Shown: piece after piece, positions 54,876-61,412 of the stretch
Position numbering within the stretch: the stretch's first letter is position 1
How the letters are laid out: the number at the start of each line of letters is the position of its first letter
Program-made: the position numbers and the translations under genes
Assembly (NCBI GenBank): GCA_963813075.1
Contig: CAWEXU010000004.1
Location: forward strand, 32,001-96,000
Direction: 5' to 3'
DNA length: 64,000 nt
From: Methanotrichaceae archaeon
Lineage (GTDB): Archaea; Halobacteriota; Methanosarcinia; Methanotrichales; Methanotrichaceae
The notes under the pieces: model-generated
Database searches by the model: none
What the model was told of the DNA's origin: nothing
Seen by the model: only the letters and a program-made list of their open reading frames with translations

Positions 54876-55137
54876 GCTGCTGGGCTGTCCTGGGCGGGCT
54901 CAGTCGATCTTGACGGCAGCGAGTCTCTCTGGGATGAGACCTGAACTGCTCAATTTTAGTGATTGGGCTGGCACTAATTGGCAGATCATATTCGTCCTAA
55001 TAAATTCTCAGTACGGTTATTCCTGGGCAAGGACAAGGCTTTCATATGGACTCTCGTGCCGCGGGTCAAGTTCCTGGCAGCAAAAAAAATCTATTACCCT
55101 ATTCTACAGATAGTGATATTGAGAATGACGACAAAGG

Positions 55138-55275
55138 ATTTCTTAAGGAAAAAGCAGCAAAGAAAGGAATGGAGACGGCATTGCTGAGCGAATCTGTTTT
55201 GGCACGGGAATGGCTAGCCCAGAGGAGGACGAAGCTTGGAAGGATTTGTGAGAGGAGATGTGGTTGTCCTGCCTA
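55138..55275 (+). pseudogene. Antitoxin C-terminus + PemK/MazF toxin 5' stub
   Basis: ETALLSESVLAREWL/PEEDEAWKDL* then MEGFVRGDVVVLP. Confidence 0.6.
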
Positions 55276-55498
55276 CTGCTAATTTTGCCATAGAAAGCTG
55301 CATCCAGACCTGAGTCCATCAAAGGTCAGGATCCGAGCATTCTCCCCCTCGTCCGCGCATGCCTTCGTACTCTCGCCCGTCCCCCCCTTTGCATTCGCTC
55401 AGGCGCACTGCATGCAGAAAAGCAATCCTTGAGAGATCAGCCAGAATGCGGTCAGAAGGCTTATATTGCTGTCCCACAATAATTTTGCGAGGCTTTTG

Positions 55499-55911
55499 AT
55501 GGACCTATCAGTAATTGCAGCGATGGCTTCCTCAGTGGTGGCTCCATACCTGGCTAAAGGAGGCGAAGCTTTTGCCAGCGAATTTGGCAAGAGCGCAGGC
55601 CAAAAGATTGTCGAGCTTGCAGATCTTGTCAAGAGCAGATTTAAGGGGGATAAAGATGCGGAGGCCATTTTCAGTCTGGCGGAAAAGGATCCTCAATCCA
55701 GGGCACGCGTGGCCTCGCTGGAGGAGGAGATAGGCAAGAAGATGAAGGAGGATCCCGATTTCGCCCGGAAGCTCGGCGCATTGATGGAGGAGGTACAAGA
55801 GACGAATCGGGAAAGGTCGTCATAAATGCGTTTTATCGAAGTGTAGCAGCGCAAAATATCACCGGAAGCACAATTTCCACCGGAGACTCCAATCCCTCCA
55901 GAGAAGATTAG
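55499..55911 (+). CDS. Bell-like helical effector with C-terminal amyloid-like motif (frameshift ~55800)
   Basis: VVAPYLAKGGEAFASEFGK...DPDFARKL; continues VVINAFYRSVAAQNITGSTISTGDSN..* in the adjacent frame. Confidence 0.7.
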
Positions 55912-55964
55912 CTGGCCGAGAACAGACAGTGACCTTCAGCCAAATAGAGCCTAAACGGAGCAGT

Positions 55965-58900
55965 GTGAACGAAAAGATAGAGGCCTCAGATCGCAGCGTA
56001 GCCGCATCTGAGATCATCAAGAGCATTATTACCACAGGCAATAACAGCCCTGTCTTCCTGGGCTACGAGCGGCTGCGAGACGCAGTTATCCAGCCCAGAT
56101 GAGGTCTTCAGGCGGGTTCACATCGAGTCTTTTGTGGGCCGCAGGTGGCTGATAGATCAGGTCGATTCCATTCTAAATGATGAGAATAACAGTTGCGGCT
56201 ATCTGGTGCTGGAGGCCCATGCCGGTCTTGGCAAGACTGCTTTTTTGGCCTGGCTGGTAAAAGAGCGAAACTATATTCACCACTTCGTCGAGCTGGCCCC
56301 GGGACAGGAGGGAATTGAAAAGGGCCTGAAGAACCTGGCCGCCCAGATCATCCTGGCGTATAAGCTCAGTGCAGATGAGGCGATACCAGATGCTGCTGGC
56401 AGACCTGATTATCTATACCGGCTGCTCTCCCAGGCAGCTGAGAAGCGAGGTCCAGGCGAGAGGATAGTGGTTGTGGTGGATGCCCTGGACGAGGCTGGCA
56501 CCCCGCCCAACCAGAACGTTCTAGGCCTGCCAAAAGTCCTGCCGGAGGGCGTGTTCTTCATCGTCTCCATGCGGCCGGTGCAGGTCACACTGCAGTCTGA
56601 CAGATCCATAACTCCCCGCTGGCCTCTGAAGATCCTCGCTGAAAGCCGTGAGAACCTGGATGACATGAAGAGCTTTCTGCAGGCCTCCGCCGCCTGGCCA
56701 AAGGTGAAGCAGGCACTGGATGAGAGCAGATACACTGCAGATGATTTCATCGATGCTTTAATGAAGAAGTCTGGAGGACTGTGGATCTATCTGCATTTTG
56801 TGATTCCAGAGATAGAGCGGGGGGAGAGATCGCCACTGGATCTGGATAAGCTTCCAGAAGGGCTGCAGGAGTACTATGCAGGTTACTGGGATCGATGGCG
56901 CAAAGCCGATAAATGGTATGAACTTTACCTGCCGATTCTTACCACGCTGGCCGCAGCCCAGGAGCCCAGCACGCTGGAGCGCATTCTGGATTGGGCAGGG
57001 ATAGTGGCTCCATGATGATGAAAAACAAAAATTGAGGAGAATTCTGAAGGAAGAGTGGCGTCCATTCCTGGCCATCTCTGGTGAGGGGAAGGAAGAGAAG
57101 TATCGTTTCTATCATGCCACAGTCAGAGAGTTCTTCGAGGGAAAGGTAAAACAGAACAGTCCTATGGCGACGGAAAATGATTTGATTATATGAGCTTTCC
57201 CAAGCTACTAAAGAACGGCACAGGATGATAGCAGAGCGCTATCTTGCTCGCTGGGGTGGTCTGGAGAAGGGGCTGCCAGATCTGGTGAATAAAAGAGATG
57301 AAGACGACGGCTATGGCCTGCGCCACCTGGCCGCCCACCTGGAAGCCTCAGGGCAGGATGATGAGCTTCATCGACTGTTGAAGCTGGAAACCAGCCAAGG
57401 AAGAAACCTCTGGTATGAGGCTAAGGAGGCTGGAGGCGATACGACTGGCTACATCAACGACGTCATGAGAGCCTGGCGGTTGGCTCGGGTGGGATATGAT
57501 CGAAAAGATATAAAGAGAACTGGCAAGCTCATCGCTCTTCAAAACAGGTATGCATTGATCTTTACGTCCATCAACAGCCTCTCGGGCAACATCCCATCTG
57601 AGCTTCTGCTGGCCCTGGTGGAAAACGACATCTGGTCTAAAGAGGAAGGACTGGCTCATGCCAGACATGTTCCGGATCCGTCCAAACGGTCGCGAGTTCT
57701 TGCAGAGTTATCATCACTAATGAATGAGCCCAAATTTATGGATGAAGCCCTCTTGAGGCCCAAGAGATCCAGAATTTGGAGGATTCTGCGGAACTCTAGC
57801 CGAGATTGTTCCTAAAATTCAGGACATAAATGACGGGCTGGCGATGGCCCGAGAAATCGATGGATGATTATTGCCGGGCCATAGCTCTAGCAGAGATTTC
57901 CCTTAGACTTCCGGAAGATCAGAAGATAAAGATCCTGGATGAGGCGCTGTTGAATGCCCGAGAAAGCAAGGATTGTTTTGGGCGCGCAGAAGATTCTTAT
58001 TGGCGTGCCATAGCTCTGGCTGAGATTGCCCCCAGACTTCCGGACGCTCAAAAGACAAAGATCCTGGATGAGGCGTTGTCAGCGGCCCAAGAAATCGTGG
58101 ATGACTGGTCACGAGCCATAGCTCTGTTTGAGATTGCTCGCAAACTTCAGGGTATAGATAAAGCGTTGGAGATAGCCCTAGAAATCCAGGATGATTATCG
58201 GCGTGCCATAGCTCTAGCTAAGATTGCTCCCAGACTTCCGGACGCTCAAAAGACAGAGATACTGATGGAGGCGTTTTTGGCAGCACTAGAAATCAAAGCC
58301 GATCGTTCGCGAGCCATAGTCATGGCCGAGATCGTTCCCAAACTTCACGATATAAATGATGCGCTGTCGATAGCCCGAGAAATCCAAGATGGTTATGGGC
58401 GTGCTAAAGTTCTGGCCGAGATTGCTCCCAGACTTCCGGACGCACAAAAGACAGAAGTACTGATGGAGGCGTTATCAGCAACCCGAGAAATCCAGGATGA
58501 TCAATCTCAAGCTATAGCTCAGGGAATGATTGGTTCCAAACTTAAGAATGCTGATGAAGCGCTGGCAATAGCCCAAATAATCCCAGGAATGATTATCGAC
58601 GTGACATAGTTCTGGCTGAGATTGCTCCCAGACTTCAGGGTATAGATGAAGCGTTGGAGATAGCCCTAAAAATCCAGGATGATTATCGGCGTGCCATAGC
58701 TCTAGCTAAGATTGCTCCCAGACTTCCTGATGCTCAAAAGACAAAGATCCTGGATGAAGCGTTGTCAGCGGCCCGAAAAATCAAGGGTGATTATTGGCGT
58801 GCTGAAGCTTTGGTCGAGATCGCTTCCAGACTTCCGGACGCCCAAAAAATAAAGATCCGGGAGGAAGCTTTGTCAGCAACCAATAAGATTCGTGATCCAC

Positions 58901-59125
58901 CTCGGTCTGCCATTGTGATACTTCCAACTGAAGAAGAAGCTGAAGAAGAGTCTATTTATTTATCCCATGGGCGCTTACTATCTGCGATCTATCAACTATG
59001 AAGCAGATCAGATTTTCTATCTGACCTGTCGTCTTTAGCCACCTCTAGTGGCCAGGCTGGGCGGCGATGAGGCATTGCTGGAGACAATACAGGCTATAAA
59101 AGACGTGGGAAGATGGTGGCCTTAA
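55965..59125 (+). CDS. NLR/STAND protein: N-terminal amyloid-like motif, NACHT-like NTPase, helical repeats (multiple frameshifts; alternative start 55929)
   Basis: FVGR, Walker A AHAGLGKT, Walker B VVVVDALDE, GLWIY, LPEGLQEYY; RAIALAEIAPRLP repeats; ends AIKDVGRWWP*. Confidence 0.8.
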
Positions 59126-59365
59126 TTCTTGCCCAATATCTTCCTGACGGGGCTTTCTCTCTGTAATGCCCCCTTCTCAGATCCTTCTATCCTTCGATCT
59201 ATTGGCTGCAAGCAATATCCTGCGCCCTTTTTTTTGGGTATTCCCGCGAGTCGGCCTGCGGCCTCCCGCGCTAGCAGTCTGGCCCACTCCAGGCCGTGGC
59301 GGCCCCCCTGACCCCGCGTCCGCGGGGGACAAACTAAGAGACTTTGCCTTTTATTCTTATACGTA

Positions 59366-59813
59366 TTATTGAGATCGCAAGGATGAAATATCCTGTGGGC
59401 CAAACATCTCCCTTAATCTTCTTTGAACTTCCTCTAAGAGGTCATGATCGATCTCGCCAAACTCCCCTTCTAAGAGAGACTTATCCAGAGTTGCCAGTTT
59501 GTTCAACTTTATTACCGAATCTCTCTTCAATCCCGATCTCCTGAAGGTGGGCATCTGTCTGGCCAGAGGGACATCCTCAAGGATGCACGTTGATCTTTGA
59601 AGAATGAACGAAATAACATCGTCATGCTCATAGATCAAGACAGGCCTCACGCCTGGATCGTGAATGGAAAAGGAACGGCAACGATCTTGCCTATCATTTG
59701 TATCTGACTTTCAGGTCCTTAAGCGAGTAGATATCTGGCTCGTCTTCCAAGAACTTCTTCAAAGAGATCTCTTCCAGCTTCATTATCGCTGCCATTTCTT
59801 CTTCATCCGTCAT
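59366..59813 (-). pseudogene. Decayed antitoxin + PemK/MazF toxin pair
   Basis: SLKKFLEDEPDIYSLKDLKVRYK*, then MIGKIVAVPFPFT / RPVLI..SGLKRDSVIKLNKLATL. Confidence 0.7.
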
Positions 59814-60043
59814 ATCGCCTTCAAAGATGGTTATCCGGATCGATCCTGGAAAGCGACTGCATGGGCCTGTGGGCAACTGACGATCTGTCGGCTCGGGCGA
59901 TCTCCTCTGCGCCTTCTGCTAAATGGTTTTTCGTTTTTGCTTTTGATGTCCTCTTCATCCTGGCAGCCATTGGCGTTTTCATCTTGCATCTGCTAAATAC
60001 CTTTGGCAAGATCCAGCACATCATCTTCTGGATCGCCCTCCCC

Positions 60044-61412
60044 TCACCCCCTCAGCTCTCCTCTGGCCAATGAGAATACGGTGCCCACCAGGCACAGCCC
60101 GGCAAAGACCGCGAAGGCCATCTGGATGCTGCTCATGAGCATATCGATATTCTCGGGCGCGATCTCTACGTGGCCCATGATAATAGAGAAGATGAGCATG
60201 GCAACTCCCAGGCTGAGCGACTGGCCGATCAGCCGCATGGTGCTCACCATCCCCGATGCCACCCCGTAGTCCGCCGGGTGAACAGCGCTCATGATGGCAT
60301 TGGTGTTGGGCGAGGCAAAGAGGGCAAACCCCACGCCCATCAGGACCAGCCCTGCCAGGATGATCTCCAGAGGGGTCTGGGGAAGAAGACGGGCGAAGAG
60401 AGCCAGGCCCAGGACGCACAGCCCCATGCCAAGAGAGGCCACGATCCTGGGCTCAATGCTGTCCGAGAGCCTTCCCGCCAGGGGGGAGAGGGCGGTCTGC
60501 ACCGCCGGCTGGGCGATCAATATCAGGCCGGCTGCCTCCGGGCCGAAGCCCTTCAGATACTGCAGGTAAAGGCTGAGGAGAAATGCCACTGCTGCTGTGG
60601 CGCTGTAGTTGATCAGAGCGGCCAGATTCGAGAAGAGGAAGACCACATTATTGCGAAATAGGTCTCACCTTCAGCACCGGATTGGCGTTGCCGCTCTCCC
60701 AGCGGAAAAAGAGGATCATAGTCGCCCCGGAAAATAGAAGCAGTACGGCTCCCATTCTATCGGGAATGAGGGTCAGGCCATAGATGAGGGAAGAGAGCAT
60801 GGCAGTATAGAGCAGCGTTCCCGCAATGTCGAAGCTTTTCCCATTCTCCCCCTTCCACTCCCCCTTGATCTTCCACCTGGCGATGACCAGGGCCAGCAGG
60901 GAATAGACGGCAACGGCAAGATAGATGAACCTCCAGCCGGCGTATGCCGTGATGACTCCGCCCAGCAATGGTCCAGTGGAGAGGCCCAGGTATGCTGCCG
61001 CCACGTTGATCCCCAGCACCCGTCCCCTTTCCCGCAGGGGGAAGACGGAGGCGAGGATGGCAATGGAGGTGCCGAAGATCATGGCGCTGCCCACTCCCTC
61101 CACCATTCGGGAGGCGATGAGCATGTGCACCCCGGTGGAGATGCTGCAGAGCAGGGAGGATACGATGACCACCACCAGGCCCGCCAGAAAGACCCTTCGC
61201 CTGCCGTAGATATCGGCTATTCTGCCGAAAGGGACAATGAAAATGGCTGCCGAGAGCAGAAATGCGGTGACGATCCAGCCCAGGAGAGACTGATCAGGAA
61301 TGGAAAATTCGCTGTTGATGGCGGGAAGGGCAACGGTCACGGATGAGGTGAGAAAGGGGGTGATGAAGGAGGACATGCAGGCAGCAACCAGCACAGCCAT
61401 CTTGTCGTTCAT
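60044..61412 (-). CDS. MFS drug:H+ antiporter-like (DHA2) transporter (frameshift ~60655)
   Basis: VALPAI, GRIADIYGRRR, GPLLGG, GRLSD, FASPNTNA. Confidence 0.9.

Follow-up and report, generated by a model that had tools for sequence, protein, structure and literature searches.

The window, by which we mean the whole 64,000-nucleotide stretch of DNA analysed here, from a Methanothrix-like archaeon, probably carries a two-gene defence module of the amyloid-signalling type, in which a Bell-domain effector and an NLR-like receptor are coupled through matched motifs of the BASS6 family. The two genes are adjacent and collinear, with 53 nt separating 55911 and 55965. This agrees with an earlier sequence-only reading, which had linked a Bell-like effector to an NLR by amyloid-like motifs and which is supported by the matched motifs, by motif matching at family level and by relatives. 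The features are as follows.

55499..55911, forward strand: Bell-domain effector gene, ~137 aa if intact, with one base missing at ~55802-55804
55499..55555, forward strand: hydrophobic helix at the N-terminus carrying Asp2, a Bell signature, from hydropathy and the model of P0002
55766..56019, forward strand: exchangeable block comprising the end of Bell helix 5, the effector motif, the 53-nt spacer and the first two thirds of the NLR motif
55822..55893, forward strand: effector-side BASS6 motif, 27/30 identical to the tail at locus L041
55965..59125, forward strand: NLR-like gene (STAND NTPase and helical repeats), ~1050 aa if intact, with 10 frame-breaking indels
55977..56048, forward strand: NLR-side BASS6 motif, from comparison with L037 and the reciprocal match
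56134..57015, forward strand: NACHT-like STAND NTPase, from sub-cut-off Pfam matches, PADLOC STAND_TPR and fold matches
56215-56238, forward strand: Walker A, sequence motif
56467-56493, forward strand: Walker B, sequence motif
57799..58875, forward strand: helical repeat region, putative sensor, with a 198-nt (66 aa) period and copies 70-83% alike
59366-59650, reverse strand: PemK/MazF toxin, PF02452 over cut-off
59694-59876, reverse strand: small upstream partner ORF, no family match

The two motifs align without gaps at 55822-55893 and 55977-56048, as had been reported from the sequence, and share 12 of 24 residues. Each is the other's best non-self match over 5,416,884 six-frame positions of the 2.7 Mb assembly, with a score of 47 for the pair and next-best genome scores of 36 and 37. 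DNA identity between them is 42/72 (58%) and 7 of the 12 shared codons differ synonymously, so the likeness has been kept at the protein level. Given that the motif spans only 24 residues, its match could be due to chance or to a recent duplication of DNA; both appear exceedingly improbable against these values, the conservation of the motif in relatives and the lack of cross-family combinations among 27 pairs. Both were rejected. Codon comparisons with L037 show both motifs to be under purifying selection, with 5/17 synonymous vs 3/55 non-synonymous sites differing in one motif, and 7/16 vs 2/56 in the other, NLR-side motif.

The motif family, previously described as unassignable, is BASS6 on the basis of sequence comparison, and a new motif family is thereby ruled out. 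The L041 tail reads, in a comparison by eye, as the published entry C09_s028, to which the window tail is near-identical, and cluster C09 corresponds to BASS6 in supplement 1 of PMC8086366; the NLR-side sequence is not among the matches listed in that supplement. A crude pattern places a BASS6 core before the NTPase in 62 of 120 NLR homologues. The label of C09_s028, A0A0W8FAR7_9ZZZZ, is presumably a code for an unclassified source, and BASS6 may not have been called archaeal. The family also occurs in other settings: P0061 fuses a Bell-like domain, BASS6, an NTPase and WD40 in one chain, at L088 a caspase-domain protein bears BASS6 next to an NLR of the window's clade, and L025 and L027 add BASS6-type pairs from the genus whose partners are different, a CHAT-STAND protein in the case of L025.

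Each motif is joined to the rest of its gene across a break in the reading frame. The stops at 55823-25 (TAA), 55909-11 (TAG) and 56100-02 (TGA), and the GTG start at 55965 preceded by GGAG at 55957-60, are all present where the sequence-only reading had placed them. Its proposed frameshift in the effector stood as far as the join is concerned, with 20/24 aligned full-length homologues ending in the window motif (the other 4 end in another), and failed in its site, the missing base lying at ~55802-55804 rather than in CAAGA. The indel at ~56096 that was proposed to join the motif to the NTPase is borne out by L037, L040 and P0031/P0032, which run straight through, and intact relatives confirm both joins. 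A metagenome scan gave 18 loci from 499 pattern matches; in L037, L040 and L041 a window-like effector tail is followed by the same NLR head. The accessions of P0016 and P0032 are consecutive (MHB8119510.1/MHB8119511.1) and belong to a record named Methanothrix sp.; the first residue of P0032 is a Met, at the site of the window GTG. In short-read contigs from four runs of four studies, a base is inserted behind 55802 in 3/4 runs among the matches listed and a base is left out at 56099 in 4/4 runs, with the frame-restoring contigs below full depth in most runs among the matches listed. The exact window strain was found in none of these runs (best share 0.40), and RNA runs contained only 5-9% of words.

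Frameshift-aware alignment places 11 frame-breaking indels and no in-frame stop in 55499-59125, nine of the indels, all in the NLR gene, being additional to the two noted previously. Beyond 57600 the window differs from P0033 by 7 indels and 7 residues, a ratio of the kind that read errors produce. The 236 ORFs in 320 kb of G005 gave a background of at least 31 frame changes in 151,932 bases, with 25/146 ordinary orthologues frameshifted. We consider it likely, from alignment to relatives, that the frameshifts in this assembly are sequencing errors. A somewhat unlikely alternative is that the system is real in the lineage and the window copy a genuine pseudogene, the locus being a costly suicide system with many decayed alleles. 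The local indel density (11 in 3.6 kb, or 3.0 per kb) is ~15x the genome background, the short-read alleles L005/L038, L035, L040, L041 and L042 are also broken or cut, and among 301 class genomes just one besides this carries the NLR clade, at 34%, all of which would fit decay. Against it stand the frameshifted ordinary orthologues of the same assembly, the absence of nonsense codons, the parity of indels and residue changes after 57600, and the NTPase comparison with L034/L035, in which 20/121 synonymous vs 10/359 non-synonymous sites differ.

The effector is a Bell protein by homology to the Bell of L007, with which it shares 43% identity over 88 residues (E 3e-24); the L007 tail reads as that of A0A1V4VC50_9EURY, which was among the archaeal seeds when Bell proteins were originally searched for. 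Bell proteins are characterised by a hydrophobic first helix with an acidic residue at position 2 or 3 (bioRxiv 10.1101/2020.01.06.895854). The first helix of the effector is hydrophobic (mean hydropathy of residues 1-19, 1.51) and carries Asp2, and its size fits a ~100-aa helical domain in a protein of 120-140 aa. A frameshift-aware alignment with P0002 gave 126/136 identical residues, and the model of P0002 is all-helical (pLDDT 81) with a helix at 3-20; residues 103-117 are drawn as helix and the remaining tail has pLDDT <50. Searches of PDB sequences and with Foldseek (E 0.001) gave no match to the effector, the best Z of 5.5 being to unrelated helical proteins. Bell models vary widely in topology (bioRxiv 10.1101/2024.11.07.622273), and these blank PDB searches do not demonstrate a new fold. 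Pfam, NCBIfam and PADLOC assigned no family, and HetE-N (PF20701), which appears in the precomputed matches of 7/29 effector homologues, was absent in hmmscan.

The effector search returned 29 matches among 38 candidates, the homologues being mostly 132-149 aa long and up to 91% identical to the window effector. Its profile matched 25/59 genus genomes and 42/301 class genomes. On a Bell tree of 89 columns the FDQ label requires at least 4 changes, a count to be read with recombination blurring the tree. Other Bell arrangements were also observed, including all-in-one Bell-motif-NB-ARC-like fusions in the genus (L008, L009), Bell-motif fusions to a domain that is CHAT-like by eye, likewise in the genus (L010, L012, L029), and Bell proteins whose longer tail is charged and repeat-like and resembles neither BASS6 nor FDQ (L076, P0190, P0199, P0222, P0247).

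The NLR gene encodes, by sequence and profile comparison, a STAND-type NTPase followed by C-terminal superstructure-forming repeats. Pfam NACHT scored 20-23 bits vs a cut-off of 26.7, AAA_16 and NPHP3_N were also below cut-off, and PF05729 appears in the precomputed matches of 2/120 NLR homologues. The PADLOC model STAND_TPR matched at E 4.6e-12, and fold matches to the NTPase were ORC5, Roq1, Apaf-1 and NRC1. The repeat profile matches helical-repeat chains, with Pfam TPR_30 below cut-off, and one repeat unit is skipped (58030 to 58229) in run X2. The window NLR is identical to P0033 at 912/967 residues, without an in-frame stop, and to P0031 at 256/300, and P0030 is an unbroken relative of 1077 aa. 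Identity to P0033 over 56200-59122 is a mosaic, with 48 residue differences before 57600 and 7 after, a pattern that suggests recombination between NLR alleles exchanging the sensor half.

Motif matching was evaluated across pairs of neighbouring genes at loci L005-L051 and L068-L077, which with the window gave 27 distinct pairs; fused or long-tailed Bells, loci at contig ends, duplicates and anchorless loci (including L025, L027 and L041) were left out. Four of the 27 pairs are BASS6 on both sides and 23 have an FDQRGQ-type tail, for which 21 heads were classed alike and 2 were unclassed by the pattern. None of the 27 extracted pairs combined two families. Cognate scores were 40-79, apart from one mis-cut head at 11, and cross-family scores were at most 26. 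In the FDQ group cognate pairs scored above shuffled ones (p 5e-5, a value overstated by kinship); in the BASS6 group they did not (n=4, p=0.17). At the level of sequence, this shows that motif matching across pairs holds for families.

Alleles that have exchanged the motif pair were found among close relatives. The 254-bp block at 55766..56019 is replaced by non-homologous DNA in L034, L035 and L042, with alignable flanks: L034 and L035 are 94% identical to the window over 55415-55765 and 93% from 56020 on, and L042 is 93% and 85% identical over the two flanks. The replacing block shares 83% identity with L005/L038 and 73% with L007, and encodes an FDQRGQ-type (BASS2/3-like) tail together with a matching head. 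The NTPase of the window and that of L034/L035 are identical at 152/160 residues. In the swapped alleles the NLR still carries the final third of its BASS6 motif, and because of this remnant the exchange is read as running from BASS6 to the FDQ type. A joint from 55765 to 56020 was found in run X6 and a loose end at 55765 in run X2, and the unbroken P0030 has a hybrid head of the swapped type. In addition, P0012, on a single contig of 919 bp, combines a window-type body (79/89 identical; 38/85 to L007) with a tail identical to that of L007 (57/57), which suggests a second capture of the tail.

With effector tail and receptor head facing each other, the matched pair would form a single exchangeable cassette. 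Because the two motifs share a single DNA block, linkage by itself accounts for their moving together, which gives no separate proof of co-evolution; in sequence terms, the exchange shows modularity rather than co-evolution. Whether a ~250-290 bp cassette has re-plugged the same Bell body and a bacteria-imported BASS6 NLR more than once with the resident BASS2/3-like pair in Methanothrix, in alleles that work, is in our judgement evenly balanced. If it has, this would be a natural rewiring of an amyloid signalling channel, possibly linking the module to other receptors or insulating it from them, or allowing escape from viral inhibitors directed at one fold. The swapped alleles, with effector and NTPase ~90% identical and motif families that differ, provide a ready-made way to test amyloid motifs for sufficiency, interchangeability and orthogonality as adaptors. 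In the literature searched, outside subscription journals, natural exchange of a motif cassette was not found to have been described.

The NLR was likely imported from bacteria, judging from the distribution of its homologues. Except for a handful of proteins from methanogens, every named relative comes from bacteria (Chloroflexota, Acidobacteriota and Planctomycetota; 46-58%). Scanning GTDB with P0031 found nothing, and scanning with A4 gave at least 80 loci, all titled bacterial. A DNA search for the locus found no orthologue among 31 related genomes, and viral contigs searched with two patterns gave no relative. Three distant NLRs of the same clade (P0056, P0085, P0143) have an FDQ-like head, in two of them stacked on a BASS6 core, and may represent similar re-plugging outside Methanothrix. 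In actinobacteria, wider-clade NLRs (L087, L090, L093) lie behind small proteins with two transmembrane helices and matching C-terminal motifs.

If the module works as Bab/Agp and HET-S/NWD2 do, the NLR would sense an invader through its repeat domain, the STAND domain would oligomerise and its N-terminal motifs would stack into a cross-beta seed. This seed would template the C-terminal motif of the effector, setting free the hydrophobic helix 1, which would damage the membrane and kill the infected cell. We think it rather unlikely that the motifs instead pair the proteins without self-propagating amyloid, as a small beta-sheet adaptor, or that the output is something other than membrane damage. 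The BASS families tested in the cited work are BASS1, BASS3 and BASS11, with BASS6 not among them, and the effector has no fold match to known pore formers; on the other side, all of those families formed fibrils, and the effector keeps its hydrophobic first helix with acidic residue 2.

The trigger could also be another non-self cue (a plasmid, a neighbouring cell or stress), or the module could be an addiction element, as toxin-antitoxin genes flank the locus. Such readings have a low probability in our assessment, given that the sole Bell-type system with a shown role in the cited work is antiphage and that the repeat region varies between alleles, as expected of a pathogen sensor. Several further features were observed around the locus. 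Upstream of the effector, inspection by eye suggests a degraded antitoxin gene and the beginning of a PemK-like toxin at 55084-55300, with no Pfam family at cut-off, and L034-L036 have a PIN and MazE-type pair in this slot. A GC-rich interspersed repeat at 59228-59340, with 21 matches in its own genome and high contig depth in all four runs, is possibly a miniature mobile element or REP-like repeat. The MFS transporter at 60044-61412 (reverse strand) is split into two ORFs where L035 has one, probably by another assembly frameshift.

The window pair belongs to a known class, and the novelty implied by the sequence-only reading is not supported: Bell domains and matched Bell/NLR pairs have been described in Methanothrix and Methanosarcinales (Dyrka et al. 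2020, bioRxiv 10.1101/2020.01.06.895854), which rules out a first archaeal case. That preprint counts 94 archaeal genomes with Bell among 1183 and describes a Bell from Methanothrix soehngenii, two pairs from Methanosarcinales that fall outside BASS1-10, and prion assays for BASS1/BASS3; the window pair may already be listed in its figures or Table S2. For a different motif family, an NLR-side peptide from Methanothrix soehngenii was amyloid-like in vitro by ATR-FTIR and Congo red (PMC8086366), and related literature includes PMC12261475 and PMC9815663. The statement that functional characterisation in archaea is lacking held up, as no in vivo function was found in the literature searched, outside subscription journals, and the two allele types offer an accessible candidate with which NLR-coupled amyloid signalling could first be tested in living archaea.

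Compared with published BASS6 Bell/NLR pairs, the window has the same collinear adjacent genes, the same matched C-terminal and N-terminal motifs and a near-identical tail. The Methanothrix soehngenii pair AEB69174.1/AEB69175.1, with tail and head named BASS2 (FDQ tail) and BASS3-like by its authors (PMC8086366), is from the same genus by source names, and the neighbour of the L007 Bell carries the published M. soehngenii peptide letter for letter. It differs in its motif family, which is the type replacing BASS6 in the swapped alleles, and in its NB-ARC/TPR receptor, whereas that of the window is NACHT-like. Bab/Agp (BASS11) of E. coli, which is antiphage and in which engineered motif and effector exchange works (bioRxiv 10.1101/2024.11.07.622273), likewise has a Bell-related effector whose C-terminal amyloid motif is activated by the N-terminal motif of the adjacent gene's product. 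However, its activator is a TPR-GreA/B-PIN protein, while the window partner is a STAND NTPase with no GreA/B or PIN match, and its shorter Babybell domain gave no structural match to the window effector. HET-S/NWD2 shares amyloid templating from receptor head to effector tail in adjacent genes, a likeness of architecture, but has a HeLo domain, an HRAM motif with two repeats and a WD40 sensor. Alongside these systems, the window pair adds an archaeal BASS6 example, with motif-cassette exchange as the new detail.
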